Source: Nemertoderma westbladi (lineage: Eukaryota > Animalia > Xenacoelomorpha). From it: DNA of 64,000 nucleotides. Positions within the stretch are counted from its first letter, which is position 1; each line of letters starts with the position of its first letter. The notes under the pieces are model-generated. The model was not told the origin of the DNA. It was given only the letters and a program-made list of their open reading frames with translations, and searched no databases. The position numbers and the translations under genes are program-made. The stretch spans positions 53,858 through 117,857 of the forward strand of contig JAUCBJ010008428.1 in NCBI GenBank assembly GCA_032718475.1. Direction: 5' to 3'. Positions 1 through 35,857 of the stretch are shown piece after piece.

Positions 1-2146
1 CCCCAATAGTTCCGTAGGCTACTGATCCCCAATAGTTCCGTACTCCTCCCCGATAGTTCCGTAGTCCTCCCCAATAGTTCCGTACTCCTCCCCAATAGTT
101 CCGTTGGCTACTGATCCCCAATAGTTCCGTACTCCTCCCCAATAGTTCCGTAGGCTACTGATCCCCAATAGTTCCGTACTCCTCCCCAATAGTTCCGTAC
201 TCCTCCCCAATAGTTCCGTACTCCTCCCCAATAGTTCCGTACTCCTCCCCAATAGTTCCGTACTCCTCCCAAATAGTTCCGTAGGCTACTGAACTCCATT
301 AGTTCCGTACTCCTCCCCAATAGTTCCGTAGGCTACTGATCCCCAATAGTTCCGTACTCCTCCCCAATAGTTCCGTACTCCTCCCCAATAGTTCCGTAGG
401 CTACTGATCCCCAATAGTTCCGTACTCTGCCCCAATAGTTCCACAGGCTACTGATCCCCAATAGTTCCGTACTCCTCCCCAATAGTTCCGTAGGCTACTG
501 ATCCCCAATAGTTCCGTACTCCTCCCCAATAGTTCTGTAGGCTACTGATCCCCAATAGTTCCGTACTCCTCCCCAATAGTTCCGTACTCCTCCCCAATAG
601 TTCCGTACTCCTCCCCAATAGTTCCGTACTCCTCCCCAATAGTTCCGTAGGCTACTGATCCCCAATAGTTCCGTACTCCTCCCCAATAGTTCCGTAGGCT
701 ACTGAACCCCAATAGTGCCGTACTCCTCCCCAATAGTTCCGTACTCCTCCCCAATAGTTCCGTACTCCTCCCCAATAGTTCCGTACTCCTCCCAAGTTCC
801 GTAGGCTACTGATCCCCAATAGTTCCGTACTCCTCCCCAATAGTTCCGTACTCCTCCCCAATAGTTCCGTAGGCTACTGATCCCCAATAGTTCCGTACTC
901 TGCCCCAATAGTTCCGTAGGCTACTGATCCCCAATAGTTCCGTAGGCTACTGATCCCCAATAGTTCCGTACTCCTCCCCAATAGTTCCGTAGGCTACTGA
1001 TCCCCAATAGTGCCGTACTCCTCCCCAATAGTTCCGTACTCCTCCCCAATAGTTCCGTACTCCTCCCCAATAGTTCCGTACTCCTCCCCAATAGTTCCGT
1101 AGGCTACTGATCCCCAATAGTTCCGTACTCCTCCCCAATAGTTCCGTACTCCTCCCCAATAGTTCCGTACTCCTCCCCAATAGTTCCGTACTCCTCCCCA
1201 ATAGTTCCGTACTCCTCCCCAATAGTTCCGTACTCCTCCCCAATAATTCCGTACTCCTCCCCAATAGTTCCGTTGGCTACTAATCCCCAATAGTTCCGTA
1301 CTCCTCCCCAATAGTTCCGTAGGCTACTGATCCCCAATAGTTCCGTACTCCTCCCCAATAGTTCCGTACTCCTCCCCAATAGTTCCTTACTCCTCCCCAA
1401 TAGTTCCGTAGGCTACTGATCCCTAATAGTTCCGTACTCCTCCCCAATAGTTCCGTACTCCTCCCCAATAGTTCCGTAATCCTCCCAAGTAGTTCCGTAG
1501 GCTACTGATCCCCAATAGTTCCGTACTCCTCCCCAATAGTTCCGTATTCCTCCCCAATAGTTCCGTAGGCTACTGATCCCCAATAGTTCCGTAGGCTACT
1601 GATCCCCAATAGTTCCGTAGGCTACTGATCCCCAATATTTCCGTAGGCTACTGATCCCCAATAGTTCCGTAGGCTACTGATCCCCAATAGTTCCGTAGGC
1701 TACATATCCCCAATAGTTCCGTACTCCTCCCCAATAGTTCCGTAGGCTACTGATCCCCAATAGTTCCGTACTCCTTCCCAATAGTTCCGTACTCCTCCCC
1801 AATAGTTCCGTACTCCTCCCCAATAGTTTCGTACTCCTCTCCAATAGTTCCGTACTCCTCCCCAGTTCCGTAGGCTACTGATCCCCAATAGTTCCGTACT
1901 CCTCCCCAATAGTTCCGTACTCCTCCCCAATAGTTCCGTAGGCTACTGATCCCCAATACTTCCGTACTCCTCCCCAATACTTCCGTACTCCTCCCCAATA
2001 GTTCCGTACTCCTCCCCAATAGTTCCGTACTCCTCCCCAATAGTTCCGTAGGCTACTGATCCCCAATAGTTCCGTACTCCTCCCCAATAGTTCCGTACTC
2101 TTCCCCAATAGTTCCGTAGGCTACTGATCCCCAATAGTTCCGTACT
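1..2146. repeat. Two-unit tandem array: A=CCCCAATAGTTCCGTACTCCT (21 bp) and B=CCCCAATAGTTCCGTAGGCTACTGAT (26 bp), interleaved; candidate telomeric repeat
   Basis: Units read directly from base 1; shared 16-bp core CCCCAATAGTTCCGTA; strong C/G strand asymmetry. Confidence refers to the array; the telomere role is inference. Confidence 0.97.
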
Positions 2147-3685
2147 TTTAAACCACGGGATTCCGGCCAGTCACCGGATATTGGGAGTGGAGAAGGAGTA
2201 CTTTCTTAAATGCAGGATTGCGGTTGAGAAAAGGTTGCATTAGTTGGATATAATCGTTTAATGTAACTTTCCTACAGAGAATTGATTGATTGAGAATAAG
2301 TTGGGCTTCCCCAAACCAATATACACCAAATATTCACAATAATATATGACAATATAAATTCCTACAGTACATTATTTAATTACCCACTGTTCACTTTAGA
2401 TTTTAACCTAACTAATGTTCCCCAATTTCCCTCGGTCCTAGTCTCGGTACCGTGGTGTCGGTGTCGGTCGACCCTGTTGCGTGTCCGTCCCACCCTTCCC
2501 GAACCCCGAAGGGATCGGTCATCAGGAGAGCGGTATGGCTTGGCTAAGGGTCGGTCAAGTCGGTAGACCCGGTTGCGTGTCCGTCCCACCCTTCCCGAAC
2601 CCTGAAGGGATCGGTCATCAGGAGAGCGGTATGGCTTGGCTAAGGGTCGGTCAAGTCGGTAGACCCGGTTGCGTGTCCGTCCCACCCTTCCCGAACCCCG
2701 AAGGGATCGGTCATCGGGAAAGCGGTACGGCTTGGCTAGGGGTCTGTCGAGTCGGTGGACCCGTTTGCGTGTCCATCCCACCCTTCCCGAACCCCGAAGA
2801 GATCGGTCATCAGGAAAACGGTACGGCTTGGCTAGGGGTCCGTCGGTTCATCACAGGGACCCAACCACCTAAGCTTTCCAAATCCTTTTCAGGCTCGTAG
2901 TCGCTTCGGTAGCCAAGAAGCTGCTCCAAACAGTCGGTAGGCCAGTGGAGTCCGGTCCTTTGTCATTCGACCCAGTTGCGTGTCCGTCCCACCCTTCCCG
3001 AACCCCAAAGGGATCGGTCAAAAGGAAAGCGGTACGGCTTGGCAAGGGGTTTGTCAGCCCATCGTGAGTCCCAACTGTTGGTAGTTTTCTGAGTCCTTAT
3101 TCAGGCTCGTACTAACGCTGGTCGTGGAACCCACTCCAGGAAGGCAGTCCTCGTCAAACCCTTCTTCCGTTTAGTCAGTCGACCCATCGCGAGTCCCTGG
3201 CGTAGTCGGCAAGCTTTCCAAGTCCTTATTCAGGCTTGTAATAAATGCCAGTGACCAGGGACCGCTAAGGATCTGTCTGTCGGTTCCCGTCGCAAATCCC
3301 TGACACAAGCAGCAGACTTTCCGAGTCCTTATTCAGGTTCGTAATAACTGCTGTTGGCCAGGGACCGCTAAGGGCAGTCCTTGTCCCTAGGCCTAGCAAG
3401 TTACCAAATCCACCTCTACAAGCCGCAAGAAGTTGGCTAGGCCTAATAGTATTCAGGTAAACCTGAGTACTGCTTAATTTTGCCTCCCACCCTTGGCCCT
3501 TAAATATCTGACATGAGTCCCGCACCCTGTAAGTCGCCCCAATATTCGCCCGTAAATCGCCCCCAGTCCATTGAATGTACCCAAATTCCATGTTCCCACA
3601 CCAAGTATTGATATTGGAATATTCATTTCAAATAAATCCGAAAAATATTCAACTCGCGTTAAGAAAAGTTGAAATACCGCGAACA
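2144..3685 (-). repeat. 3' LTR of the BEL element (about 29 bp missing at its outer end)
   Basis: On minus it starts TGTTCGCGG at 3685, right after the PPT; 2144-3352 aligns with 11079-12072. Confidence 0.85.
2476..2850. repeat. 96-bp tandem repeat inside the LTR (about 4 copies plus a partial copy near 2975; 3 copies in the other LTR)
   Basis: GTTGCGTGTCCGTCCCACCCTTCCCGAACC starts at 2476, 2572 and 2668, with a variant copy near 2764. Confidence 0.92.
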
Positions 3686-3709
3686 GTCCCCCCCCCCCCC
3701 CCCCCCCAA
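3686..3709 (-). promoter_or_regulatory. Polypurine tract of the BEL element
   Basis: Minus strand reads G-run, AC, then TGTTCGCG at the LTR start. Confidence 0.8.
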
Positions 3710-3875
3710 TGACCTTCGTGAGGTCTATCGGTAGATCGAGTTTGCGTAGGTCATTTCCCATATAAAAAACCCAAATTTTAATATTGCATAGTCTTGATGA
3801 ATTTTTCCTAGAGTTAGTTTATGTAAATATAAAAATAAATGTTCGATATAAATGTCTCTGGAATATCCTGGTCCT

Positions 3876-5015
3876 CTATTTCTTACTCTGATACGCCTTT
3901 CTCCTCTTCGCCCGTCTACTCTCATCGATCGCCAGTGCTGGTAGGGGAGCATCAATGTCCATCGCAAGCATCGCTTCAGCTTGTCTCCTGGCGGCTCTTC
4001 CCTTTGATGGTAGCGGGATCATATCCGTCCATCTCTCCAACTCGGTAGTGCGTGCCTCTAGGAACCACTTTCCGTCACCGAATTCTTCCTTATAGGAGTA
4101 TAAACGCCTAAGGATCTCGAAGGGACCGAATAATCCGGCGCTTAATAATAGATCCACGTAATGGAATGGTAGCGTCACTGTCGTATGGAGGCATTCTGGG
4201 AACGAGAAGTATCCGCACGCCATTTCTTGCGCGATATTTCGAGCGCTTCTCCGCACTTTGGTCTTTACGTGGTTATTGGCGTAGGTTTCAAACATAACCA
4301 TATTTCCCATAGCTGTTACGTCCTTCGTAGGACACTTTATGTTACAACGGGGGCATGCGGAATGTCCACGGAAGCCGCATTCTGTGCAGATGTTGTAAAG
4401 GATAGGACAAGCCAAAACATCGTGGCCCGATGTTGCGCAATAGGGACAGTAAAGTATCCCGAGGAGCTGGAGGCACAAATCGGTAACCCGATTTCTCCTT
4501 CTGTGTGGGCACTGCTCCGAGCCGCAGTTTCCACACACCTCCAGTTGCATCTCCCAGCCGAAGATTATCGGAACCGGTACGCCGGCGTAATACTCCAGTC
4601 GTCGATCGCTTTTGGGGATACTCGCCGTGGCCGGTAACCCGCGGAAAGCTGGGCTTTGGCGCAGTATGTTCTCACTTCGATAACCTTCTTTATATCCTGC
4701 CGGTCGCATCCCGGGCGCCCGTTTCTGGCGGTGGATCCATTCGGTCTGTTCGGCGTACCATCGGGTAAGTCGCATAGGGTCTTGTGGAAAGGAGGGGGCC
4801 GTTGCCACAGCTGGTCGGCGAAGAGGTGCCGGGGCGTTCGCTGGAGGGAGTCCGAGGAGATCTACGGGAGTCGGCGCAACGCTGGGACCCTTAGCAACCT
4901 GTATCGCTGAACGGGTCCGTAGGGTGCTGGTACTCGGGATCTCCGAAGACCAGTCTTCTCCCCCCGGGAACGGATATGGAGACAACCTCTGACATATGTC
5001 GCCGAAGTCATTCAA
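3876..5015 (-). CDS. Accessory ORF C, 379 aa: Pro-rich N-terminus, clustered Cys/His motifs, basic C-terminal tail; family not recognised
   Basis: CGNCGSEQCPH, CPYCATSGHDVLAC, CTECGFRGHSACPRC; tail RRAKRRKAYQSKK. The start is TTG and overlaps ORF B, so it may be a frameshifted continuation. Confidence 0.65.
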   Translation of the reverse strand: MNDFGDICQRLSPYPFPGGEDWSSEIPSTSTLRTRSAIQVAKGPSVAPTPVDLLGLPPANAPAPLRRPAVATAPSFPQDPMRLTRWYAEQTEWIHRQKRAPGMRPAGYKEGYRSENILRQSPAFRGLPATASIPKSDRRLEYYAGVPVPIIFGWEMQLEVCGNCGSEQCPHRRRNRVTDLCLQLLGILYCPYCATSGHDVLACPILYNICTECGFRGHSACPRCNIKCPTKDVTAMGNMVMFETYANNHVKTKVRRSARNIAQEMACGYFSFPECLHTTVTLPFHYVDLLLSAGLFGPFEILRRLYSYKEEFGDGKWFLEARTTELERWTDMIPLPSKGRAARRQAEAMLAMDIDAPLPALAIDESRRAKRRKAYQSKK

Positions 5016-5685
5016 CGCGAAGGTAGTTTACTAACTCCCTAGCGGGACTACCAGAGCCAAGTGGGGTGGATATGCCTGCTTCCGTCGCAGGTTCGGCCGA
5101 GGCAACCCGTTTGGCGGCCGGTTCGTACGCAACTTCCGGATCGAGTTGTCGCTTTGGGGTGGACAGTAGAACACCTTCCTGTAGCCATAATTCCTCCCCA
5201 TCCAAAGATATCAGTGGTTCCTCTGCACCGAGGAGATCAGCAATCGTAGGGATGTCGAACGGTCCATTCTCGTCCCAGGATGCGATGACGTGGAGCGTTT
5301 TCGTCTCTCCCGGTGGAATATTCTCTACCGCTTTGAACGCGTGGTCGATAACTTGATTCGACTCATAGTCGATAAAGGATCTAGGAACCGCCTTAATGAG
5401 ATTATCGAGAGTCTTACAGATGAACTTGGCAACTGTGTATGATTCCATTACGACGTAGATATAGTTCCGTCGGTCCGGGTTCTCCCATTTGTGGTGGATC
5501 GTCCACTTTCTTTCTACGTCCTTCCAACGACTCTCTCGCTCACTCTTTATCTCTATTTCCGGGTACCCACCATATATCTTATTATAATCCTGGAATTTCT
5601 GAGGTTTAAAGTCTATACCGCCGTTTAGCACCGCGAGGTAGCCGATACCGGATTTCGTCCGTCTCACCTCCCGGAGTCCACACAT
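5008..5685 (-). CDS. Accessory ORF B, 225 aa, unknown function
   Basis: ATG-to-TGA ORF with globular-looking composition; PAAKRV motif near the end. Confidence 0.6.
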   Translation of the reverse strand: MCGLREVRRTKSGIGYLAVLNGGIDFKPQKFQDYNKIYGGYPEIEIKSERESRWKDVERKWTIHHKWENPDRRNYIYVVMESYTVAKFICKTLDNLIKAVPRSFIDYESNQVIDHAFKAVENIPPGETKTLHVIASWDENGPFDIPTIADLLGAEEPLISLDGEELWLQEGVLLSTPKRQLDPEVAYEPAAKRVASAEPATEAGISTPLGSGSPARELVNYLRVE

Positions 5686-5842
5686 GATTTCAGTGGATCG
5701 TAACCAGGCTAACAGTGTTTGGGTATCAACGCAATGACTAATGGCGTTGAGATCTTCTCGACGGTTTCTTCCGAAAGGAGCGTTAGCGTAGTTGTTTCAG
5801 ACGTCCGCCTTTATATCTGACCCAATTTTAATGACATCGAAA

Positions 5843-6499
5843 TCAAATAGGATCTGTTGGATCTCCGGTGGTAATAGCCAGATCGCTCCGGCTGTCTGCA
5901 CCTCCTGATTGGGTGTCGGGAATATTCGACATATCAACACCAGACCATCTAGGGTTCCGAGGACGATGACCAATGATCGACCGTATTCCTTCGTCCCATA
6001 CTTCTCCTGGTAGTCGTCTCGATTCTGGATAACTGATATACGTTCCTCTCGCAGCGTCGCTGTACACTCCGCTAGGTTTCCCCAGTGGGTGAGGTACGTA
6101 CGTACTCTTGTCGTCGACGAAACTTTGGCATCGCGCCAACGTAATCGCTTTCGAGGTGGGCGTCGCGTTTCCCTCGTTGTCGTATATCAAACATCGGGAT
6201 TTGTAGACGCTTTGCCGGAACGCATCCCAGAATGACAACTCCGCTCCTCCGGTTGCCTTTGCTTTCCGAGTTCTTTTCAGTCTCGTACTAGCATCGGACA
6301 ACCGGAGCTCTCGTAGATTACGGGAATCCGGTCCCTCTCGCCCGGAGAATTTAATGATTCGCACATTCTCGGATATCAGGGCATTCCATTCTGTATCAAA
6401 GTTAGGAGATCCAGGCTGTGGATATTCCAGTAAATCTAGTGTATTACGTAGTTCGCCGAGAATTTGGCGATTTGGGTCCATATTTTCCATTATGTCCAT
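5843..6499 (-). CDS. Accessory ORF A, 218 aa, unknown function
   Basis: ATG-to-stop ORF following an AT-rich spacer; basic patch RLKRTRKAK. Confidence 0.6.
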   Translation of the reverse strand: MDIMENMDPNRQILGELRNTLDLLEYPQPGSPNFDTEWNALISENVRIIKFSGREGPDSRNLRELRLSDASTRLKRTRKAKATGGAELSFWDAFRQSVYKSRCLIYDNEGNATPTSKAITLARCQSFVDDKSTYVPHPLGKPSGVYSDAARGTYISYPESRRLPGEVWDEGIRSIIGHRPRNPRWSGVDMSNIPDTQSGGADSRSDLAITTGDPTDPI

Positions 6500-6779
6500 T
6501 GCAAATTTAAGTAAGTTAATTATAAATCCAGAAAGTCTGATTCTATAGTGACTGCAGAATAATTCAGTTTATTTGTAATTCAGTTTATTAATTATTATTG
6601 CTATATAGGCATCTACCATCTTATTGCTACTATATTCAGTATTTACAGTTACTATAGCTATACAATTATATCCAACCAGTTTTTGACTTTTTATGTCCTC
6701 TTCTTTTTCCAATTCTTTTCCTTTCTACATTTTATACATTTTTTTGTCTTTTTTCATTTCTCATTTATTACTCGTTATA

Positions 6780-6912
6780 TTTCATTATTTCTTTCCACAT
6801 TTCATCATTTATTTCCACATTTCATCATTTATTTCCACATTTCATCATTTATTTCCACATTTCATCATTATTTCCACATTTATTTCACATTTCATTTATT
6901 TCAATTTCATCA
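6780..6912. repeat. 20-bp AT-rich minisatellite (TTTATTTCCACATTTCATCA)
   Basis: Several consecutive copies seen directly. Confidence 0.85.
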
Positions 6913-7089
6913 TTGGGGTCATAGCCCCCTGGCTATCATCATTTGTTATAAGCGCAGCACCAGGGTGCGCATCATTACATTTTCATCATCATACGCGTCA
7001 TCATTCAGTTTATAGTAGGGTTGTCTGTTTCTTTTCATCATTTCCAACTACATTCAATCATCTTCTTTTGGAAATTTTCGTTGTGGAAG

Positions 7090-7510
7090 GGTGTTACGTG
7101 GCAATCTGGGATCTACAGCTGGGCTAGTTACACCGCCTATGCCCCAAAGTGCATATGTAACGGACAATGAAGACGCTGGAAGTGAAGTCACGTGGAATGC
7201 ACCAGGGACCCACCAGAATAACACTACCAACAACATAAAGCTCAGCCGACAAAGTCATGTGGGATGGGGTTACGCAACATTCTGGGATCTACAGCTGGAC
7301 TAGTTACACCACCTACGCCCCAAAATCCACGCAACGGTCCCACCAGAATAACGCAACTGAGAAACATAAAACCTCTATCGACGAAGTCATGTGGATGCAC
7401 CATGGACCCACCAGAATAACGGGATAGAGGGGGTGTTGCGCGGCAATCCGGGATCTACAGCTGGACTAGTTACACCGCCTACGCCCCGAACTGTGCACGC
7501 AACGGACAAT
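7090..7510. repeat. Three degenerate direct repeats (about 170-bp period) with a conserved ~40-bp core
   Basis: GGATCTACAGCTGG(A/G)CTAGTTACACC(G/A)CCTA near 7109, 7285 and 7451. Confidence 0.85.
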
Positions 7511-7859: not shown

Positions 7860-7985
7860 CTGTCATTGCCTTCAAGAAGGCACAGCCTCTGGATAGGGCG
7901 TTGGTAGTGGCCCTTTGCCGTTCATATCGTCACAGTTCTCGCAAGTGCCACTGTTCTCGGCCGGTACACTGCTTTATTTCCAGGG
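7860..7985 (-). pseudogene. pol: Remnant of the BEL integrase C-terminus
   Basis: Minus-strand fragments read REQWHL and TAKGHYQRPIQRLCLLE, matching the C-terminal motifs of BEL/Pao integrases; only about 200 bp after the protease. Confidence 0.7.
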
Positions 7986-8160
7986 CTCGGTTCGCTACGA
8001 ATGTGGTGTGTCGCCATGATGGTGAATGGAGGTCGGTCACCGAACAATAACCCACGGAGGTTGCGTTCTCTTTGATCTGGCATTTAGGGAGATATGTATA
8101 GGTGTCGGTAGTCTCCTCTTTGATGCCGCAGAGTGTCCATCCCATGATAGTGCGCTCTGC

Positions 8161-10645
8161 TTAAAAATCGTCGTCCGGCTTTACGGATCGGGCTACGTTT
8201 CCGGTTGGTATATGTAATTCCGGTGTGTCAAGTCCGATTAATAGGGTAATTCGGTTTACGTCCAACGGTGGGCATCGTAGATCTACATCTTCCCAGTCTA
8301 GCTGTATGAGGGGTGCAGATGATTGTTCAGATGATTGTCGGAACAGCACTCGGAGATCAGTGTGTACCAGAGCGTTCTTGATCGTCAGTTTGACCATCTC
8401 GTAACCCTTCCTATCCCCTTCCATCTTGAGTTGTACCTCCCTGGACTCCACTTCTCTATGGTCGGTGATAGTTTGTATGGGCCGCTTGCAAGGTTCGTAA
8501 TCTAGGCCTAGTTGTTCGAGGAAATCCCGGTCGATGATGGTTCCGTCCGACCCGTTGTCAAGGAACGCGAGTGTTGTTAAGGATTTCCCGACCCCTTGGA
8601 TTCTTACTCTGATCACTTTGGCGAAGACCATGTAACGGCGGTTTAGAAGATTGACCGTAGCTGATATACTGGTCACGTGTGATACATCGGTGGCGGTTTT
8701 AAATGGATTGGTTTCCCTCCGCTGAATCGTCCGGGTACCCTTAGAGACGTGATTCGTTTCTCCTTTCCATTTGGATTCAATCCGGAATGGTAGGGTGGTA
8801 AAATCGAAGTTCGCAGGGATGTGGAGGAGTGTGTGATGGCGTAGGTCATTACAGACCGCGCAGCATGATCTTTGGTCGCAATCATGGACGTAGTGACCTG
8901 TTCCGAGATACCAGAAGCATCCTCGGTGTTTCATGATTGCCTCGAAGCGTGGAATGAGTTCAGCAAACTGGAACTTTCTGCAGAATTCCACCTTGTGTTT
9001 CTCCCTGCTGAAGAGACATAGAAGGGAGGTTGTGGTGCCTTCCCTTTCGGGTGCCCAATTCGCTAGATAACACGCCCATTCCTCAGCTGATGTCGGTTCC
9101 TCGTAGTCCTCGTCGTCGGAATCCTCGGCCATGGTGATGGCCATCGTACTCATCAGAGGGGGACGGAATCTCGGTTTCGGAGTGGGTGCCCTGCTCCTAG
9201 AGTTGTTCTCTATTCCGTCTAACTTGGAGAGACTTTGTTTGGAGAACATCGAGTCATTCATGGCTTCGGAGATATCATCTAGGAATGCCGACATTTCGAG
9301 GAAACTGGGATCCCGATCCGGGTGTCTGCATCGGAGATCTACGCATTTATATGCCCATTTGCTTTGCAGCCATCCGGGGAACTTTCGGGCAATCTGTCGG
9401 AGGTTTAAAATGTTGTTTACTTGTTCTTCCTTGTTTAATGGTTTTTAAGTGTAGTAGGCATCTTTCACAGAGTCCGAGAACTCTTGGATATTCTGTGGGT
9501 CCCCTAGGGATCCAGCGTCCTGTATCAGATTTTCGAGCATCTTATTAATTATAGTTCCGATGTTTCCGTACCTTTTATCTAGAGTTTTCCATGCGTCGTG
9601 GTATGCTTCGTGAGATCCTCCTTCGAAACATTTAATGATTCGACGTGGTTTGTCACCCAGGTATTGGGATAAATATACCAGTTTTTGTGCGTCGGTTATA
9701 TCTGTTGAACCGATCTGAGCGAAGAACCGTTTCTTAAATCCGAGGTAATTGATGGGGTCTCCCTCGAAGGTGCGGATCTCCATTTTGGGCATAGCCAGGC
9801 AGTTTTCCAAGGCTCGGATGATGCCGACGTCGTCTGAACTGGAATGACTAGGAGGATTATAATTACTAACACTCTCTCCCATGCACGATGGATCGATGAG
9901 AAGTGGAGTTTTAATGATGACGCGGTTACGGATTTTCGATGTGGATGTGAACGGATTGTTGGATCGAGGGGTGGCGTCCCGTTCCGAGTCCTTTTCAGGC
10001 TCGTACTGGGGAACGCTCGGTGCCGTGGGATTGGATGGGAAATAAGGTTCCTCATTCTTAAGCGTAACCGGTGGGGGGTGGAATACTGGTGCTTGTGCCG
10101 ATAACGTGGACCGTATGTTTGGCGGAAACTCAGGTTTCGGGGGTTCCGCAGCCGGTGGTGTAAATGACTTTTCTAACTCCGGGACCGGAATTGGTTCATA
10201 GTCCTGTTCTATACCCCTTTCCCAGTCCTCGTATAGTTGAAGGTCCCGTTCTATGAGTGCAGCTTCGTAGTCTGCGAGTTTAGCAATATCCGCGTTCTTC
10301 TTGTGAATAAGAATCGCTTGGGCCTTGGTGTTCCATTTATGCATTCTACGCATTTACGCTGGGGTAGTTTCCCAGATCGGTTGCGGGAATGAGTTCCTGA
10401 TATGCCTGTATCATCCGTTCATATCGTTGTAAGATACTTCGGATATTCTGTAGTTGAGCCTGTATATCGCTGAGGGGGGTCTCGGCTCCCTTTAGTTGTT
10501 TCTCGATGCGGTGGTATGCTCGAGTCACTCCACCTTTGAGAGCTCCCAGTCGACGGGCCATGTTCTTCACATTCGGTACCTCGTCGGTTTCCGAGTCTGT
10601 GTGGGGGTCCATTTCATCAGTATCGGAGACGTTATTCGTCGTCAT
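8161..10645 (-). pseudogene. gag: BEL/Pao gag-protease, broken by frameshifts near 10350 and 9445
   Basis: RRLGALKGGVTR N-terminus; PKMEIRTFEGDPINYLGFKKRF (DUF1759-type); FPGWLQSKW; degenerate knuckles CLFSREKHKVEFC, CFWYLGTGHYVHDC, CAVCNDLRHHTLLH; protease AFLDNGSDGT. Confidence 0.9.
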
Positions 10646-11050
10646 TCTAGCGCCTCGTTGATTGCTATATATGCGATATCGTAAAATAGTTCTTCATAGG
10701 TCTCGTATTCAGCCTGGACTACCCGAACGGTAATCCTGAATCGTCCAATGTTCGTTCCTTGTACTTCGACTTCGACGTGCCAGATTCCTGGCTCAACTTG
10801 GATTATATCAATAGGTGTCTTCCATTCCCTGACTCTCTTATTTATGATCTGCAGACAACGAGTTTTTAGTTTGAGTTTGTAATTTGATTGAACCACGGCT
10901 TTGTCTTAAATCAAATACCAGAGTTTCCTCGTAGTGGGTGCTGGGTAAGCACGGAGAGAGTTTGAAGAGTACTGTAGAATTCCCAACATCCACCAGTTGA
11001 AGTTGGCCGCGTCTTATTCTCAATTTTGTTGCCGTTATTCCCGACACCAT
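10642..11050 (-). CDS. Upstream ORF(s) of 70 and 84 aa in the leader, possibly one frameshifted ORF0
   Basis: Two overlapping ORFs fill the LTR-to-gag leader; the stop overlaps the gag ATG as ATGA. Confidence 0.4.
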
Positions 11051-12072
11051 GGGGGAAAACGCCGATGCTGGAGGCGGAACTTTTAAACCACGGGATTCCG
11101 GCCAGTCACCGGATATTGGGAGTGGAGAAGGAGTACTTTCTTAAATGCAGGATTGCGGTTGAGAAAAGGTTGCATTAGTTGGATATAATCGCTTAATGTA
11201 ACTTTCCTACAGTTGTTGAATCATGAATCCTGAATCCTGATTGAGAATAAGTTGGGCTTCCCCAAACCAATATACACCAAATATTCACAATAATATATGA
11301 CAATATAAATTCCTACAGTACATTATTTAATTACCCACTGTTCGCTTTAGATTTTAACCTAACTAATGTTCCCCATTTTCCCTCGGTCCTAGTCTCGGTA
11401 CCGTGGAGTCAGTGTCGGTCGACCCTGTTGCGTGTCCGTCCCACCCTTCCCAAACTCCGAAGGGATTGGTCATCAGGAAAGCGGTACGGCTTGGCTAAGG
11501 GTCGGTCAAGTCGGTAGACCCGGTTGCGTGTCCGTCCCACCCTCCCCGAACCCCGAAGGGATCGGTCATCAGGAAAGCGGTACAGCTTGGCTAGGGGTCT
11601 GTCGAGTCGGTGGACCCGTTTGCATGTCCATCCCACCCTTCCCGAACCCTGAAGGGATTGGTCATCAGGAAAGCGGTACGGCTTGGCTAGGGGTCCGTCG
11701 GTTCATCACAGGGACCCAACTACCTAGGCTTTCCGAATCCTTTTCAGGCTCGTAGTCGCTTCGGTAGCCGAGAAGCTGCTCCGAACAGTCCCAACTGTTG
11801 GTAGTTTTCCGAGTCCTTATTCAGGCTCGTACTAACGCCGGTCGTGGAACCCACTCCAGGAAGGCAGTCCTCGTCAAACCCTTCCTCCGTTTAGTCGGTC
11901 GACCCGTCGCAAGTCCCTGGCGTAGTCGGCAAGCTTTCTGAGTCCTTATTCAGGCTCGTAATAACTGCCGGCGACCAGGGACCGCTAAGGATCTGTCCAT
12001 CGGTTCCCATCGCAAATCCCTGACACAAGCAGCAGACTTCCCGAGTCCTTATTCTGGCTCGTAATAACTGCT
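11050..12072 (-). repeat. 5' LTR of the BEL element (about 330 bp missing at its outer end)
   Basis: Matches 2144-3352. The inner end is inferred from minus-strand CCCCCA|TGGTGTCGGG (CA followed by a PBS-like TGG). Confidence 0.8.
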
Positions 12073-15000
12073 AGTTACGTCCGTACTCCTACCCACTAGT
12101 TTCATCCCGCTACTGCACTTGCACTAGTTCCGTCCAATCCTACCCACTAGTTTCATCCCGCTACTGCACTTGCACTAGTTCCGTCCGTACTCCTAGCCAC
12201 TAGATTCATCCCGCTACTGCACTTGCACTAGTTCCGTCCAATCCTACCCACTAGTTTCATCCCGCTACTGCACTTGCACTAGTTCCGTCCGTACTCCTAG
12301 CCACTAGTTTCATCCCGCTCCTGCACTTGCACTAGCTCCGTCCGTACTCCTACCCACTAGTTTCATCCCGCTACTGCACTTACACTAGTTACGTCTGTAC
12401 TACTAGCCACTAGTTTGATCCCGCTACTGCACTTTCACTAGTTCCGTCCGTACTCCTAGCCACTAGTTTCATCCCGCTACTGCACTTGCACTAGTTCCGT
12501 CCAATCCTACCCACGAGTTTCATCCCGCTACTGCACTTGCACTAGTTCCGTCCAATCCTACCCACTAGTTTCATCCCGCTACTGCACTTGCACTAGTTCC
12601 GTCCATACTCCTACCCACTAGTTCCGTCCGTACTCCTAGCCACTAGTTTCATCCCGGTACTGTACTTGCACTAGTTCCATCCGTACTACTAGCCACTAGT
12701 TTCATCCCGCTACTGCACTTGCAATAGTTCCGTCCGTACTACTAGCCACTAGTTTCATCCTGCTACTGCACTTGCACTAGTTCCGTCCGTACTACTAGCC
12801 ACTAGTTTCATCCCGCTACTGCACTTGCACTAGTTCCGTCCGTAATACTAGCCACTAGTTCCATCCCGCTACTGCACTTGCACTAGTTCCGTCCAATCAT
12901 ACCCACTAGTTTCATCCCGCTACTGCACTTGCACTAGTTCCGTCCGTACTACTAGCCACTAGTTTCATCCCGCTACTGCACTTGCACTAGTTCCGTCCGT
13001 ACTCCTAGCCACTAGTTTCATCCCGCTACTGCACTTGCACTAGTTCCGTCCGCTCTCCTACCCACTAGTTTCATCCCGCTACTGCACTTGCACTAGTTCC
13101 ATCCATACTCCTAGACACTAGTTTCATCCGCTACTGCACTTGCACTAGTTCCGTCCGCACTCCTAGCCAATAGTTTCATCCCGCTACTGCACTTGCACTA
13201 GTTCCGTCCGTAGTCCTAGCCACTAGTCTCATCCCGCTACTGCACTTGCACTAGTTCCGTCCAATCCTACACACTAGTTTCATCCCGCTACTGCACTTTC
13301 ACTATTTCCGTCCAATCCTACCCACTAGTTTCATCCCGCTACTGCACTTGAACTAGTTCCGTCCGTACTCCTAGCCACTAGTTTCATCCGCTACTGCACT
13401 TGCACTAGTTCCGTCCAATCCTACCCACTAGTTTCATCCCGCTACTGCACTTGCACTAGTTCCGTCCGTACTCCTAACCACTAGTTTCATCCGCTACTGC
13501 ACTTGCACTAGTTCCGTCCGTACTCCTAGCCACTAGTTTCATCCCGCTACTGCACTTGCACTAGTTCCGTCCACTCCTAGCCTCTAGTTTCATCCCGCTA
13601 CGGCACTTGCACTAGTTCCGTCCGTACTACTAGCCACTAGTTTTATCCCGCTACTGCACTTGCACTAGTTCCGTCCGTACTCCTACCCACTAGTTCCGTC
13701 CGTACTCCTAGCCTCTAGTTTCATCCCGCTACTGCACTTGCACTAGTTCCGTCCGTACTCCTAGCCACTAGTTTCATCCCGCTACTGCACTTGCACTATT
13801 TCCGTCCAATCCTACCCACTAGTTTCATCCCGCTACCGCACTTGCACTAGTTCCGTCCGTACTCCTAGCCACTAGTTTCATCCCACTTCTGCACTTGCAC
13901 TAGCTCCGTCCGTACTCCTACCCACTAGTTTCATCCCGCTACTGCACTTACACTAGTTACGTCTGTACTACTAGCCACTAGTTTCATCCCGCTACTGCAC
14001 TTTCACTAGTTCCGTCCGTACTCGAAGTCACTAGTTTCATCCCGCTACTGCACTTGCACTAGTTCCGCCCAATCCTACCCACTAGTTTCATCCCGCTACT
14101 GCACTTGCACTAGTTCCGTCCAATCCTACCCACTAGTTTCATCCCGCTACTGCACTTGCACTAGTTCCATCCATACACCTACCCACTAGTTCCGTCCGTA
14201 CTCCTAGTCACTAGTTTCATCCCGGTACTGTACTTGCACTAGTTCCGTCCGTACTACTAGCCACTAGTTTCATCCCGCTACTGCACTTGCACTAGTTCCG
14301 TCCAATCCTACCCACTAGTTTCATCCCGCTACTGCACTTGCACTAGTTCCATCCATACTCCTACCCACTAGTTCCGTCCGTACTCCTAGTCACTAGTTTC
14401 ATCCCGGTACTGCACTTGCACTAGTTCCGTCCGTACTCCTAACCACTAATTTCATCCCGCTACTGCACTTGCACTAGTTCCGCCCACTCCTACCCACTAG
14501 TTTCATCCCGCTACTGCACTTACACTAGTTCCGTCCGTACTCCTACCCACTAGTTTCATCCCGCTACTGCACGTGCACTAGTTCCGTCCAATCCTACCCA
14601 TTAGTTTCATCCCGCTACTGCACTTGCACTTGTTCCGTCCGTACTCCTAGCCACTAGTTTCATCCCGCTACTGCACTTGCACTATTTCCGTCCAATCCTA
14701 CCCACTAGTTTCATCCCGCTACTGCACTTGCACTAGTTCCGTCCGTACTCCTAGCCACTAGTTTCATCCCGCTTCTGCACTTGCACTAGCTCCGTCCGTA
14801 CTCCTACCCACTAGTTTCATCCCGCTACTGCACTTACACTAGTTACGTCTGTACTACTAGCCACTAGTTTCATCCCGCTACTGCACTTTCACTAGTTCCA
14901 TCCGTACTCCTAGCCACTAGTTTCATCCCGCTACTGCACTTGCACTAGTTCCGTCCAATCCTACCCACTAGTTTCATCCCGCAACTGCACTTGCACTAGT

Positions 15001-18000
15001 TCCGTCCAATCCTACCCACTAGTTTCATCCCGCTACTGCACTTGCACTAGTTCCGTCCATACTCCTACCCACTAGTTCCGTCCGTACTCCTAGCCACTAG
15101 TTTCATCCCGGTACTGTACTTGCACTAGTTCCGTCCGTACTACTAGCCACTAGTTTCATCCCGCTACTGCACTTGCAATAGTTCCGTCCGTACTACTAGC
15201 CACTAGTTTCATCCTGCTACTGCACTTGCACTAGTTCCGTCCGTACTACTAGCCACTAGTTTCATCCCGCTACTGCACTTGCACTAGTTCCGTCCGTACT
15301 ACTAGCCACTAGTTCCATCCCGCTACTGCACTTGCACTAGTTCCGTCCAATCATACCCACTAGTTTCATCCCGCTACTGCACTTGCACTAGTTCCGTCCG
15401 TACTACTAGCCACTAGTTTCATCCCGCTACGGCACTTGCACTAGTTCCGTCCGTACTCCTACCCTCTAGTTCCGTCCGTACTCCTACCCACTAGATTCAT
15501 CCCGCTACTGCACTTGCACTAGTTCCGTCCACTCCTACCCACTAGTTTCATCCCGCTACTGCACTTGCACTATAGTTCCGTCCGTACTCCTACCCACTAG
15601 TTTCATTCCGCTACTGCACTTGCACTAGTTCCGTCCAATCCTACCCACTAGTTTCATCCCGCTACTGAACTTGCACTAGTTCCGCCGTACTCCTACCCAC
15701 TAGTTCCGTCCGTACTTCTAGCCACTAGTTTCATCCCGCTACTGCACTTGCACTAGTTCCGTCCAATCCTACCCACTAGTTTCATCCCGCTACTGCACTT
15801 GCACTAGTTCCGTCCAATCATACTCACTAGTTTCATCCCACTACTGCACTTGCACTAGTTCCGTCCGTACTCCTAGAAACTAGTTTCAACCCGCTACTGC
15901 ACTAGTTCCGTCCAATCCTACCCACATCCCGCTACTGCACTTGCACTAGTTCCGTCCGTACTCCTAGCCACTAGTTTCATCCGCTACTGCACTTGCACTA
16001 GTTCCGTCCGTACTCCTAGCCAGTAGTTTCATCCCGCTACTGCACTTGTACTAGTTCCGTCCAATCCTACCCACTAGTTTCATCCCGGTACTGCACTTGC
16101 ACTAGTTCCGTCCGTACTCCTAACCACTAGTTTCATCCCGCTACTGCACTTGCACTAGTTCCGTCCAATCCTACCCACTAGTTTAATCCGGCTACTGCAC
16201 TTGCACTAGTTCCGTCCGTACTCCTAGCCTCTAGTTTCATCCCGCTACTGCACTTGCACTAGTTCCGTCCGTACTCCTAGCCATTAGTTTCATCCCGCTA
16301 CTGCACTTGCACTAGTTCCGTCCGTACTCCTAGCCTCTAGTTTCATCCCGCTACTGCACTTGCACTAGTTCCGTCCGTACTCCTACCCACTAGTTTCATC
16401 CCGCTACTGCACTTGCACTAGTTCCGTACACTCCTAGCCACTAGTTTCATCCCGCTACTGCACTTGCACTAGTTCCATCCGTACTCCTAGCCACTAGTTG
16501 CATCCCGCTACTGCACTTGCACTAGTTCCGTCCTATCCTACCCACTAGTTTCATCCCGCTACTGCACTTGCACTAGTTCCGTCCGTACTCCTACCCACTA
16601 GTTCCGTCCGTACTCCTAGCCTCTAGTTTCATCCCGCTACTGCACTTGCACTAGGTCCGTCCGTACTCCTAGCCACTAGTTTCATCCCGCTACTGCACTT
16701 GCACTAGTTCCGTCCGTACTCCTAGCCACTAGTTTCATCCCGCTACTGCACTTGCACTAGTTCCGTCCAATCCTACCCACTAGTTTTATCCCACTACTGC
16801 ACTTGCACTAGTTCCGCCGTACTCCTACCCACTAGTTCCGTCCGTACTCCTAGCCACTAGTTTCATCCCGCTACTGCACTTGCACTAGTTCCGTCCGTAC
16901 TCCTAGCTACTAGTTTCATCCCGCTACTGCACTTGCACTAGTTCCGTCCGTACTCCTAGCCACTAGTTTCATCCCGCTACTGCACTTGCACTAGTTCCGT
17001 CCAATCCTACCCACTAGTTTCATCCCGCTACTGCACTTGCACTAGTTCCGTCCGTACTCCTAGCCACTAGTTTCATCCCGCTACTGCACTTGCACTAGTT
17101 CCGCCCGTACTCCTACCCACTAGTTTCATCCCGCTACTGCACTTGCACTAGTTCCGTCCGTACTCCTAGCCACTAGTTTCATCCCGCTACTGCACTTGCA
17201 CTAGTTCCGTCCGTACTACTAGCCACTAGTTTCATCCCGCTACTGCACTTGCACTAGTTCCGTCCGAACTCCTACCCACTAGTTTCATCCCGCTACTGCA
17301 CTTGCACTAGTTCCGTCCGTACTCCTAGCCACTAGTTTCATCCCGCTACTGCACTTGCACTAGTTCCGTCCGTACTCCTAGCCACTAGTTTCATCCCGCT
17401 ACTGCACTTGCACTAGTTCCGTCCGTACTCCTAGCCACTAGTTTCATCCCGCTACTGCACTTTCACTAGTTCCGCCCGTACTCCTACCCACTAGTTTCAT
17501 CCCGCTACTGCACTTTCACTAGTTCCGTCCGTACTCCTAGCCACTAGTTTCATCCCGCTACTGCACTTGCACTAGTTCCGTCCGAACTCCTACCCACTAG
17601 TTTCATCCCGCTACTGCACTAGTTCCGTCCAATCCTACCCACTAGTTTCATCCCGCTACTGCACTTTCACTAGTTCCGTCCGTACTCCTAGCCACTAGTT
17701 TCATCCCGCTACTGCACTTGCTCTAGTTCCGTCCTATCCTACCCACTAGTTTTATCCCACTACTGCACTTGCACTAGTTCCGCCGTACTCCTACCCACTA
17801 GTTCCGTCCGTACTCCTAGCCACTAGTTTCATCCCGCTACTGCACTTGCACTAGTTCCGTCCGTACTCCTAGCCACTAGTTTCATCCCGCTACTGCACTT
17901 GCACTATTTCCGTCCAATCCTACCCACTAGTTTCATCCCGCTACCGCACTTGCACTAGTTCCGTCCGTACTCCTAGCCACTAGTTTCATCCCACTTCTGC

Positions 18001-21000
18001 ACTTGCACTAGCTCCGTCCGTACTCCTACCCACTAGTTTCATCCCGCTACTGCACTTACACTAGTTACGTCTGTACTACTAGCCACTAGTTTCATCCCGC
18101 TACTGCACTTTCACTAGTTCCGTCCGTACTCGAAGTCACTAGTTTCATCCCGCTACTGCACTTGCACTAGTTCCGCCCAATCCTACCCACTAGTTTCATC
18201 CCGCTACTGCACTTGCACTAGTTCCGTCCAATCCTACCCACTAGTTTCATCCCGCTACTGCACTTGCACTAGTTCCATCCATACTCCTACCCACTAGTTC
18301 CGTCCGTACTCCTAGTCACTAGTTTCATCCCGGTACTGTACTTGCACTAGTTCCGTCCGTACTACTAGCCACTAGTTTCATCCCGCTACTGCACTTGCAC
18401 TAGTTCCGTCCAATCCTACCCACTAGTTTCATCCCGCTACTGCACTTGCACTAGTTCCATCCATACTCCTACCCACTAGTTCCGTCCGTACTCCTAGTCA
18501 CTAGTTTCATCCCGGTACTGCACTTGCACTAGTTCCGTCCGTACTCCTAACCACTAATTTCATCCCGCTACTGCACTTGCACTAGTTCCGCCCACTCCTA
18601 CCCACTAGTTTCATCCCGCTACTGCACTTACACTAGTTCCGTCCGTACTCCTACCCACTAGTTTCATCCCGCTACTGCACGTGCACTAGTTCCGTCCAAT
18701 CCTACCCATTAGTTTCATCCCGCTACTGCACTTGCACTTGTTCCGTCCGTACTCCTAGCCACTAGTTTCATCCCGCTACTGCACTTGCACTATTTCCGTC
18801 CAATCCTACCCACTAGTTTCATCCCGCTACTGCACTTGCACTAGTTCCGTCCGTACTCCTAGCCACTAGTTTCATCCCGCTTCTGCACTTGCACTAGCTC
18901 CGTCCGTACTCCTACCCACTAGTTTCATCCCGCTACTGCACTTACACTAGTTACGTCTGTACTACTAGCCACTAGTTTCATCCCGCTACTGCACTTTCAC
19001 TAGTTCCATCCGTACTCCTAGCCACTAGTTTCATCCCGCTACTGCACTTGCACTAGTTCCGTCCAATCCTACCCACTAGTTTCATCCCGCTACTGCACTT
19101 GCACTAGTTCCGTCCAATCCTACCCACTAGTTTCATCCCGCTACTGCACTTGCACTAGTTCCGTCCATACTCCTACCCACTAGTTCCGTCCGTACTCCTA
19201 GCCACTAGTTTCATCCCGGTACTGTACTTGCACTAGTTCCGTCCGTACTACTAGCCACTAGTTTCATCCCGCTACTGCACTTGCAATAGTTCCGTCCGTA
19301 CTACTAGCCACTAGTTTCATCCTGCTACTGCACTTGCACTAGTTCCGTCCGTACTACTAGCCACTAGTTTCATCCCGCTACTGCACTTGCACTAGTTCCG
19401 TCCGTACTACTAGCCACTAGTTCCATCCCGCTACTGCACTTGCACTAGTTCCGTCCAATCATACCCACTAGTTTCATCCCGCTACTGCACTTGCACTAGT
19501 TCCGTCCGTACTACTAGCCACTAGTTCCATCCCGCTACTGCACTTGCACTAGTTCCGTCCAATCATACCCACTAGTTTCATCCCGCTACTGCACTTGCAC
19601 TAGTTCCGTCCGTACTACTAGCCACTAGTTTCATCCCGCTACGGCACTTGCACTAGTTCCGTCCGTACTCCTACCCTCTAGTTCCGTCCGTACTCCTACC
19701 CACTAGATTCATCCCGCTACTGCACTTGCACTAGTTCCGTCCACTCCTACCCACTAGTTTCATCCCGCTACTGCACTTGCACTATAGTTCCGTCCGTACT
19801 CCTACCCACTAGTTTCATTCCGCTACTGCACTTGCACTAGTTCCGTCCAATCCTACCCACTAGTTTCATCCCGCTACTGAACTTGCACTAGTTCCGCCGT
19901 ACTCCTACCCACTAGTTCCGTCCGTACTTCTAGCCACTAGTTTCATCCCGCTACTGCACTTGCACTAGTTCCGTCCAATCCTACCCACTAGTTTCATCCC
20001 GCTACTGCACTTGCACTAGTTCCGTCCAATCATACTCACTAGTTTCATCCCACTACTGCACTTGCACTAGTTCCGTCCGTACTCCTAGAAACTAGTTTCA
20101 ACCCGCTACTGCACTAGTTCCGTCCAATCCTACCCACATCCCGCTACTGCACTTGCACTAGTTCCGTCCGTACTCCTAGCCACTAGTTTCATCCGCTACT
20201 GCACTTGCACTAGTTCCGTCCGTACTCCTAGCCAGTAGTTTCATCCCGCTACTGCACTTGTACTAGTTCCGTCCAATCCTACCCACTAGTGTCATCCCGG
20301 TACTGCACTTGCACTAGTTCCGTCCGTACTCCTAACCACTAGTTTCATCCCGCTACTGCACTTGCACTAGTTCCGTCCAATCCTACCCACTAGTTTAATC
20401 CGGCTACTGCACTTGCACTAGTTCCGTCCGTACTCCTAGCCTCTAGTTTCATCCCGCTACTGCACTTGCACTAGTTCCGTCCGTACTCCTAGCCATTAGT
20501 TTCATCCCGCTACTGCACTTGCACTAGTTCCGTCCGTACTCCTAGCCTCTAGTTTCATCCCGCTACTGCACTTGCACTAGTTCCGTCCGTACTCCTACCC
20601 ACTAGTTTCATCCCGCTACTGCACTTGCACTAGTTCCGTACACTCCTAGCCACTAGTTTCATCCCGCTACTGCACTTGCACTAGTTCCGTCCGTACTACT
20701 AGCCACTAGTTTCATCCCGCTACTGCACTTGCACTAGTTCCGTCCGTACTACTAGCCACTAGTTCCATCCCGCTACTGCACTTGCACTAGTTCCGTCCAA
20801 TCATACCCACTAGTTTCATCCCGCTACTGCACTTGCACTAGTTCCGTCCGTACTACTAGCCACTAGTTTCATCCCGCTACGGCACTTGCACTAGTTCCGT
20901 CCGTACTCCTACCCTCTAGTTCCGTCCGTACTCCTACCCACTAGATTCATCCCGCTACTGCACTTGCACTAGTTCCGTCCACTCCTACCCACTAGTTTCA

Positions 21001-24000
21001 TCCCGCTACTGCACTTGCACTATAGTTCCGTCCGTACTCCTACCCACTAGTTTCATTCCGCTACTGCACTTGCACTAGTTCCGTCCAATCCTACCCACTA
21101 GTTTCATCCCGCTACTGAACTTGCACTAGTTCCGCCGTACTCCTACCCACTAGTTCCGTCCGTACTTCTAGCCACTAGTTTCATCCCGCTACTGCACTTG
21201 CACTAGTTCCGTCCAATCCTACCCACTAGTTTCATCCCGCTACTGCACTTGCACTAGTTCCGTCCAATCATACTCACTAGTTTCATCCCACTACTGCACT
21301 TGCACTAGTTCCGTCCGTACTCCTAGAAACTAGTTTCAACCCGCTACTGCACTAGTTCCGTCCAATCCTACCCACATCCCGCTACTGCACTTGCACTAGT
21401 TCCGTCCGTACTCCTAGCCACTAGTTTCATCCGCTACTGCACTTGCACTAGTTCCGTCCGTACTCCTAGCCAGTAGTTTCATCCCGCTACTGCACTTGTA
21501 CTAGTTCCGTCCAATCCTACCCACTAGTGTCATCCCGGTACTGCACTTGCACTAGTTCCGTCCGTACTCCTAACCACTAGTTTCATCCCGCTACTGCACT
21601 TGCACTAGTTCCGTCCAATCCTACCCACTAGTTTAATCCGGCTACTGCACTTGCACTAGTTCCGTCCGTACTCCTAGCCTCTAGTTTCATCCCGCTACTG
21701 CACTTGCACTAGTTCCGTCCGTACTCCTAGCCATTAGTTTCATCCCGCTACTGCACTTGCACTAGTTCCGTCCGTACTCCTAGCCTCTAGTTTCATCCCG
21801 CTACTGCACTTGCACTAGTTCCGTCCGTACTCCTACCCACTAGTTTCATCCCGCTACTGCACTTGCACTAGTTCCGTACACTCCTAGCCACTAGTTTCAT
21901 CCCGCTACTGCACTTGCACTAGTTCCATCCGTACTCCTAGCCACTAGTTGCATCCCGCTACTGCACTTGCACTAGTTCCGTCCTATCCTACCCACTAGTT
22001 TCATCCCGCTACTGCACTTGCACTAGTTCCGTCCGTACTCCTACCCACTAGTTCCGTCCGTACTCCTAGCCTCTAGTTTCATCCCGCTACTGCACTTGCA
22101 CTAGGTCCGTCCGTACTCCTAGCCACTAGTTTCATCCCGCTACTGCACTTGCACTAGTTCCGTCCGTACTCCTAGCCACTAGTTTCATCCCGCTACTGCA
22201 CTTGCACTAGTTCCGTCCAATCCTACCCACTAGTTTTATCCCACTACTGCACTTGCACTAGTTCCGCCGTACTCCTACCCACTAGTTCCGTCCGTACTCC
22301 TAGCCACTAGTTTCATCCCGCTACTGCACTTGCACTAGTTCCGTCCGTACTCCTAGCTACTAGTTTCATCCCGCTACTGCACTTGCACTAGTTCCGTCCG
22401 TACTCCTAGCCACTAGTTTCATCCCGCTACTGCACTTGCACTAGTTCCGTCCAATCCTACCCACTAGTTTCATCCCGCTACTGCACTTGCACTAGTTCCG
22501 TCCGTACTCCTAGCCACTAGTTTCATCCCGCTACTGCACTTGCACTAGTTCCGCCCGTACTCCTACCCACTAGTTTCATCCCGCTACTGCACTTGCACTA
22601 GTTCCGTCCGTACTCCTAGCCACTAGTTTCATCCCGCTACTGCACTTGCACTAGTTCCGTCCGTACTACTAGCCACTAGTTTCATCCCGCTACTGCACTT
22701 GCACTAGTTCCGTCCGAACTCCTACCCACTAGTTTCATCCCGCTACTGCACTTGCACTAGTTCCGTCCGTACTCCTAGCCACTAGTTTCATCCCGCTACT
22801 GCACTTGCACTAGTTCCGTCCGTACTCCTAGCCACTAGTTTCATCCCGCTACTGCACTTGCACTAGTTCCGTCCGTACTCCTAGCCACTAGTTTCATCCC
22901 GCTACTGCACTTTCACTAGTTCCGCCCGTACTCCTACCCACTAGTTTCATCCCGCTACTGCACTTTCACTAGTTCCGTCCGTACTCCTAGCCACTAGTTT
23001 CATCCCGCTACTGCACTTGCACTAGTTCCGTCCGAACTCCTACCCACTAGTTTCATCCCGCTACTGCACTAGTTCCGTCCAATCCTACCCACTAGTTTCA
23101 TCCCGCTACTGCACTTTCACTAGTTCCGTCCGTACTCCTAGCCACTAGTTTCATCCCGCTACTGCACTTGCTCTAGTTCCGTCCTATCCTACCCACTAGT
23201 TTTATCCCACTACTGCACTTGCACTAGTTCCGCCGTACTCCTACCCACTAGTTCCGTCCGTACTCCTAGCCACTAGTTTCATCCCGCTACTGCACTTGCA
23301 CTAGTTCCGTCCGTACTCCTAGCTACTAGTTTCATCCCGCTACTGCACTTGCACTAGCTCCGTCCGTACTCCTAGCCACTAGTTTCATCCCGCTACTGCA
23401 CTTTCACTAGTTCCGCCCGTACTCCTACCCACTAGTTTCATCCCGCTACTGCACTTTCACTAGTTCCGTCCGTACTCCTACCCACTAGTTTCATCCCGCT
23501 ACTGCACTTGCACTAGTTCCGTCCGTACTCCTAGCCACTAGTTTCATCCCGCTACTGCATTTGCTCTAGTTCCGTCCTATCCTACCCACTAGTTTCATCC
23601 CACTACTGCACTTGCACTAGTTCCGCCGTACTCCTACCCACTAGTTCCGTCCGTACTCCTAGCCACTAGTTTCATCCCGCTACTGCACTTGCACTAGGTC
23701 CGTCCGTACTCCTAGCCACTAGTTTCATCCCGCTACTGCACTTGCTCTAGTTCCGTCCTATCCTACCCACTAGTTTCATCCCACTACTGCACTTGCACTA
23801 GTTCCGCCGTACTCCTACCCACTAGTTCCGTCCGTACTCCTAGCCACTAGTTTCATCCCGCTACTGCACTTGCACTAGTTCCGTCCGTACTCCTAGCTAC
23901 TAGTTTCATCCCGCTACTGCACTTGCACTATTTCCGTCCAATCCTACCCACTAGTTTCATCCCGCTACTGCACTTGCACTAGTTCCGTCCGTACTCCTAG

Positions 24001-31291: not shown

Positions 31292-31300
31292 CTGTATATA

Positions 31301-35747: not shown

Positions 35748-35857
35748 TGGATCTTGAAATTTTAATAATTTCAATATCCCTTTTTGTTTTCTGTAATAAT
35801 ACTAGGCCAGCACTTTCAAACAATTTTAAATTAACTCTTGCTATTATATATAACGCA

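Follow-up and report, generated by a model that had tools for sequence, protein, structure and literature searches.

A two-unit 21/26-nt repeat array of Nemertoderma westbladi as a candidate telomerase-made chromosome end

The window, a stretch of 64,000 nucleotides from the xenacoelomorph Nemertoderma westbladi, opens with an array of two related units in irregular order. The locus raises the question of whether such an array is a chromosome end written by telomerase or a satellite of another origin. The initial annotation had proposed a non-canonical telomere. New in the present analysis are the lack of long duplications in the array versus their presence in a neighbouring 53-bp satellite, the kinship of this satellite with the dimer of the two units, the joint of the array with a long terminal repeat (LTR), and the non-random order of the longer unit.

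Composition, order and ageing of the array

The parsing of the array yields two units, designated A and B, which have a common 16-nt core and differ in the whole segment outside it (5 nt in A, 10 nt in B). Both units agree, as written, with the 21-nt and 26-nt units and the common core of the initial annotation. The coordinates of the array and of the neighbouring features are collected in Table 1. The G-rich strand of the array is the minus strand (G 0.377, C 0.133), with a GC skew of -0.46 in the first and -0.51 in the second kb of the window, and runs 5' to 3' toward base 1, as had been stated before. Provided that base 1 is the end, this is the polarity expected of a telomere, which would arise by chance in 50% of cases. 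The units end in TTGGGG. A GATC site arises in each intact B, and the array contains 28 such sites. Structure prediction on four units gave neither a stable G-quadruplex nor a stable hairpin (-2.4 and -4.0 kcal/mol). Base 1 of the window, which contains no N, is the first C of a unit, a weak indication with a chance of about 1 in 22. With such a start the G-strand would end in GGGG, which is also the boundary used by the compound-template model described below.

Table 1. Features of the array and of the adjoining DNA (positions in the window)
Feature	Position	Strand	Description
A/B array	1..2146	-	95 units, the last incomplete: 63 A of 21 nt, 32 B of 26 nt
Perfect A + B + four C	116..166	+	predicted template-like sequence (in some permutation) when read as RNA, from order statistics
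Six-B run	1552..1707	-	5 of the 6 B-B neighbours; exception to the rule that B is single
Junction overlap ACT	2144..2146	.	3 nt, common to last A unit and LTR
Distal (3') LTR	2144..3685	-	BEL/Pao-like element; lacks 29 bp present in the other copy at 11050-11078
Polypurine tract	~3688-3707		adjoins 3685
Three extra ORFs	3876..6568	-	383 (Cys/His-rich), 262 and 241 aa; without Pfam family
gag, aspartyl protease, integrase	7862..10353	-	DUF1759 (E=1.3e-10); protease (E=3.6e-5); C-terminal remnant of integrase
Proximal (5') LTR	11050..12072	-	cut by satellite; lacks 333 bp (3353-3685 in the other copy)
TGG-type primer-binding site	next to 11050		after the proximal LTR on the minus strand
53-bp satellite	12071..28448	-	a (25 or 23 nt) + b (28 nt); about 10 kb inward of the array

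The number of A units between B units varies from 0 to 7, in agreement with the earlier count of 0 to about 7. The longest repeated word of the A/B string has 11 letters (11.9±2.0 in 500 shuffles) and its autocorrelation stays within ±0.17 at lags 3-24. Both values are at the level of chance, and the earlier claim that the order has no periodicity holds to this extent, but the order is not independent, as B rarely neighbours B. In the direction of synthesis, B comes after A in 26 of 63 cases (0.41) and after B in 6 of 31 (0.19; Fisher P=0.04). The runs test proposed in the initial annotation likewise gives an order that is aperiodic but non-random: runs of at least two B number 2 versus 7.1 expected (P=0.0003 when the composition is fixed, P=0.010 for independent draws), a statistic that was picked after the A/B string had been seen. 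B stands single in 24 of the 26 B runs. The 25 internal A runs of at least one unit, sorted by increasing length, number 10, 5, 3, 4, 2, 0 and 1, versus 10.1, 6.0, 3.6, 2.1, 1.3, 0.8 and 0.5 for a geometric distribution.

These statistics bear on the two mechanisms put forward earlier. One template with two registers fits the order, whereas two independent templates are disfavoured by P(B|B) being lower than P(B|A), since two independent enzymes always give P(B|B) of at least P(B|A), even when staying on is included. Two fully independent enzymes were rejected as a model, as their best fit collapses to independent draws (log-likelihood -60.3 versus -57.9 for the Markov chain). The AIC is 122.6 for independent draws and 119.9 for the Markov chain, a gain of only 2.7. 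A telomere made from two RNA paralogs would be expected to have a random or clumped order, which is not the order found, although unequal annealing could reconcile the two. On the other hand, a compound template would be expected to produce the short unit as a sub-repeat, in the words BA and A, and this is the pattern of the array, with the six-B run as exception. The evidence from the order comes from one array and is modest.

Differences from the reference occur in 28 of the 94 full units and comprise 35 substitutions in 2134 bp (1.6%), most commonly C>T (10 of 35), and two 3-nt deletions. Variant units make up 12 of 47 and 16 of 47 in the two halves, with no drop toward base 1. The near-perfect repeats that are expected toward the tip of a telomere are absent at this level of substitution, and the array is aged rather than freshly written. 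The absence of a gradient could be understood if the array is the proximal stretch of a longer telomere. As the initial annotation had remarked, the substitutions are mostly singletons: 20 of the 28 distinct changes occur once. Recurrent substitutions number 8 versus 5.5±1.6 by chance (P=0.11). A change of two bases is found in two places, both with the context BAABA, and two adjacent units have one change in common; such recurring variants indicate that some copying took place.

The longest exact repeat of the array measures 156 bp, versus 149±26 bp when the units are shuffled (P=0.32). The corresponding value for the 53-bp satellite is 1794 bp, versus 158±16 bp in 20 shuffles. The signature of a satellite amplified by recombination, namely higher-order repeats with common variants, is present in the satellite and absent from the array. 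A simple simulation of slippage alongside mutation predicts 9.9 pairs of neighbours with a common variant, versus 1 seen, and this mode of growth was rejected (P=0.005). The sharing of variants by adjacent units is far below the slippage expectation, so the order came first and the ageing later. Unit-by-unit synthesis, preferred over recombination in the initial annotation, gains support from these comparisons.

The adjoining element and the inner satellite

The inner border of the array is formed by a BEL/Pao-like element, placed between the array and the 53-bp satellite. Its LTR were recognized by self-comparison of the window, in which 2144-3352 recurs at 11079-12072. The LTR, bounded by the primer site and the polypurine tract, is about 1.57 kb long, and both copies contain a 96-bp tandem repeat. 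The tail of the integrase contains an RPIQRL motif, which we take to be a mark of BEL/Pao elements. The ORF list of the element includes no reverse transcriptase/RNase H ORF, and the element is therefore likely to be non-autonomous. For the Cys/His-rich ORF, the Atlas leads to DUF8363/CCHC clusters, all under 0.9, and two ORFs of the element gave no matches in protein searches. A second copy of the element (2144-12072) is not found elsewhere in the window.

At the junction, the last A unit and the LTR overlap by 3 nt, and overlaps of at least this length arise in 6% of random joins. The overlap fits a healing of the end by telomerase, for which priming by 1-3 nt is reported in nematodes (PMC11347171). 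The joint, 29 bp short of the LTR end, also fits a small deletion after insertion of the element into an array. The two LTR differ in 42 of 971 aligned bases, which corresponds to about 2.2% per copy. This value is near the 1.6% of the array, so dating does not settle whether the array is younger than the LTR insertion.

The initial annotation had used the 53-bp satellite as a contrast to the array. The contrast stands in that the satellite is amplified by recombination: higher-order repeats are nested in it, and variant monomers recur near 1250, 4100-4200 and 5450 bp. It fails in that the satellite is also a relative of the A+B dimer. The a+b dimer aligns with A+B at a score of 73 versus 21.7±7.1, reached in 0 of 2000 shuffles; the match of a with A is strong (48 versus 15.0), whereas that of b with B alone is weak (27 versus 13.8, P=0.02). 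Both monomers begin with CACTAGTT, the polarity is that of the array, and the G content is 0.380 in the satellite versus 0.377 in the array. The alignment scores argue that the satellite is a diverged A+B dimer, homologous to the array. Its neighbours include 29 aa and 0 bb, an asymmetry as in the array, although the 29 aa neighbours group into 9 pairs that resemble each other and may go back to a very small number of events. The satellite is 2.85% off its consensus, above the divergence of the array.

The two arrays also differ in the core. CAATAG is found 84 times and CACTAG 0 times in the array, versus 5 and 551 times in the satellite. Given this fixed difference across the element, the element did not simply insert into one uniform array. 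The simplest reading would be a layering, with an old version inside and a new one outside, as expected at a chromosome end.

Further repeats of the window were noted on the way. Right behind the satellite, at 28449-28500, there are degenerate ACTAGCTA..AAAA units, similar to loose ends of the public run X3 beside A-like pieces; by eye, they are possibly a common proximal border. At 31050-31300 there is, by eye, an inverted repeat, long and near-perfect, that resembles a MITE or a hairpin. A broken LINE with endonuclease and reverse transcriptase pieces extends over 35720-39769, and Gypsy-like pieces are interleaved with it (33980-35636, 36833-37357, 40163-41676). The first ORF of the LINE contains a GDVHPNPGP stretch that resembles a 2A ribosome-skipping peptide, and the matches of its reverse transcriptase in the protein search are 28-44% identical at most. 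At 58599-59628, two arrays of a 12-bp unit lie in opposite orientation, 195 bp apart, in a foldback-like arrangement.

Occurrence in public runs and possible origins

Three of the six listed public runs, from two studies, contain 15-24% of the words sampled from 1-3400. In contigs of the runs X1 and X2, B and A units are adjacent, with 2-5 differences (2061-2460; 315-408). These contigs come from two samples and two studies, at most one of which is the source, so at least one non-source sample truly contains the units. Contigs at least 99% alike on 315-408 number 102 of 671 in X1, 40 of 225 in X2, 0 of 93 in X3 and 6 of 300 in X4; contig depths in the runs do not measure copy number and were not taken for it. 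Two runs from the sample of X1, namely X3 and X4, have next to no cover on the B-specific bases. Libraries cut at GATC would explain this lack. Scans for the array motif in contigs of metagenomes, viruses and prokaryote genomes gave 0 matches, as did a contig scan for the motif of the 53-bp satellite. LTR relatives are numerous in X1-X3. Among the loose ends listed, those of X1, X3 and X5 run on into the ordinary LTR end and not into the array, and none of the contigs listed spans the LTR-array junction.

Most of the matching contigs belong to a diverged A-like family, with CACTAG in the loose ends where the array has CAATAG. This 21-mer family is very abundant in X1-X4, with a CACTAG core and without B, and the window holds no such array. 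It is a third member of the repeat family. Among the 24 loose ends listed, of 46, non-repeat flanks are found before and behind A-like pieces, which means that the wider 21-mer family has internal copies; the contigs flanked on both sides match the A part only and are mostly of the diverged CACTAG type.

We consider the array a candidate telomerase-made chromosome end, with a probability of roughly 0.55. Against this reading stand the substitutions of 1.6% without a gradient, the two-sided flanks of the 21-mer family and the fact that there is a single array. Canonical repeats are represented in the window by one TTAGGTTAGG, at chance level, and there is no TTAGGG dimer. The window gave 0 Rfam hits, and no isolated copy of the core within 3 mismatches was found in it outside the array.

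If the array was made by telomerase, it would be the proximal part of an animal chromosome end in which the units have grown to 21 and 26 bases. Given this origin, a single compound template with two registers has about an even chance, whereas two RNA paralogs with unequal annealing are possible but less probable. The compound template would be one RNA stretch of about 50 bases, comparable to the sequence at 116-166 read as RNA, with, in this order, a short stretch for alignment, the segment specific to B, the core, the segment specific to A and a second copy of the core. A primer ending in GGGG and annealed at the outer site would be extended by B and then A, whereas a primer annealed at the inner core would receive A alone. 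With two such annealing sites, B would nearly always be followed by A, and the A runs would be geometric (q of about 0.4). The six-B run would require a leak in this model. Other templates were considered and rejected. A single 26-nt B template, with A made by skipping, fails because B does not contain the five A-specific bases. A template with a single core and the A and B parts on either side would, by reasoning only, give an independent order.

The following history may be proposed for the locus. An older end array of a and b units would have received the insertion of the BEL/Pao-like element. Then, the end would have been eroded or deleted to just within the distal LTR. Subsequently, a telomerase with a changed template (core CACTAG to CAATAG) would have healed the end via the 3-nt match, and the old array would have stayed internal and been amplified by recombination. 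The full combination, one template of about 50 nt with both units and the 16-kb satellite as fossil of a previous a+b template of 53 nt, is a tentative proposal and on balance unlikely.

The internal copies of the 21-mer family, very abundant and flanked on both sides among the 24 loose ends listed, of 46, also lend weight to a different origin. The array may be an internal satellite of the 53-bp/CACTAG family, which grew early by slippage from an AB dimer, is unrelated to chromosome ends and happens to be located at the edge of the window or contig. The divergence of 1.6% without a gradient and the cutting of both LTR, one of them by the 53-bp satellite, are in keeping with this origin, which we nevertheless regard as improbable: higher-order duplications are missing, a single adjacent pair has a common variant, and the core differs from that of the satellite across the element. 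In addition, we infer that an assembly which crosses the 16-kb satellite, with its exact duplications of 1.8 kb, should not break in 2 kb of aperiodic sequence, an argument valid only if base 1 is the start of the contig.

The layering of related satellites can alternatively be read as the work of a chromosome end without telomerase. In such a terminal satellite, maintained by recombination, rolling circles or gene conversion, the 53-bp, 21-mer and A/B repeats would have succeeded each other at the tip. G-rich, oriented and composite terminal repeats without telomerase have been described (PMC10844300; PMC13234504), and the few recurrent variants and the uniform ageing of the array would also agree with this origin. 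Growth by copying should, however, leave long duplications of the A/B order with common variants, and none is found in the array. A telomerase-free end is about as improbable as an internal satellite. An artefact of assembly or consensus at a contig edge, suggested by the location of the array at base 1, is very improbable, as A and B are adjacent in contigs from two studies, and it is thereby largely refuted for the units, though not for the LTR joint.

Significance and comparison with known telomeres

For most arthropods and other ecdysozoans, the telomerase RNA is described as not identified (PMC12133305); in Allium and Bombus, its discovery is reported to have been made possible by long telomeric units (PMC9841428). 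If the array is a telomerase product, a unit of 21 or 26 nt would point almost uniquely to the RNA gene in one genome search. The repeats would be the longest telomerase-made ones seen in an animal. They would offer a test of the template length that an animal TERT can copy, and of paralogs versus registers as the source of mixed telomeres. The satellite would then show directly how an old telomere becomes a subtelomeric satellite, and one end would record the evolution of its template. If the array is an internal satellite, it would represent an unusual two-unit repeat family.

Topic searches of the literature, mostly non-subscription and without TeloBase entries or supplements, returned no animal telomere with a unit of 20-26 nt. 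Twelve motif fragments, searched in both orientations, led to no relevant literature in main texts, one 13-mer having matched unrelated papers. A genome note on a copepod says nothing about telomeres. The telomere motifs of insects are given as 1-11 nt (PMC12036569), and the present units are about twice the length reported there.

Insect telomeres interrupted by the TRAS/SART retrotransposons are described in the same source (PMC12036569). As in these, a retroelement is placed between layers of oriented repeats. Unlike in these, the element is an LTR element with cut ends, and the repeat versions on its two sides are different. Telomerase-independent terminal repeats are reported from Meloidogyne, with motifs of 80-100 bp (PMC10844300), and from Microstromatales (PMC13234504). 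They are rich in G, oriented and non-canonical, as is the array, which lacks the duplication signature that growth by copying should leave.

Mixed telomeres from telomerase RNA paralogs offer a closer parallel. In Andrena dorsata, 10-nt units from RNA paralogs are said to "seem to alternate randomly" (10.1101/2025.04.29.651168), and mixed telomeres from paralogs are also reported for Mimulus lewisii (PMC12169523) and Candida tropicalis (PMC7857110). Two units are interspersed in one array in all of these and in the array analysed here. On the other hand, the units there are 6-10 nt long or differ by one base, whereas those of the array measure 21 and 26 nt and B avoids B.

In unit length, the nearest relatives are Saccharomycotina yeasts. 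Units of over 20 nt are reported for C. albicans and K. lactis, and a putative unit of 43 nt for Pichia norvegensis (PMC7857110). The array resembles them in length and in a modest G content with one G run; it differs in having two units of different length and an animal host.

In the mode of synthesis, the nearest relative is Bombus, in which alternative annealing of one telomerase RNA is reported to place TTAGG among TTAGGTTGGGG (PMC9841428). Both arrays have a compound unit, a part of which also occurs alone in irregular order, and a run of four G at the unit end. The compound has 11 nt in Bombus, and the putative compound of the array 47 nt (21 + 26). In Bombus, TRAP yields the short form as a minor product, whereas A alone would be the commoner addition in the array. 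By analogy, the array is a candidate for a compound telomere that would work as in Bombus, at a unit length like that of yeasts.
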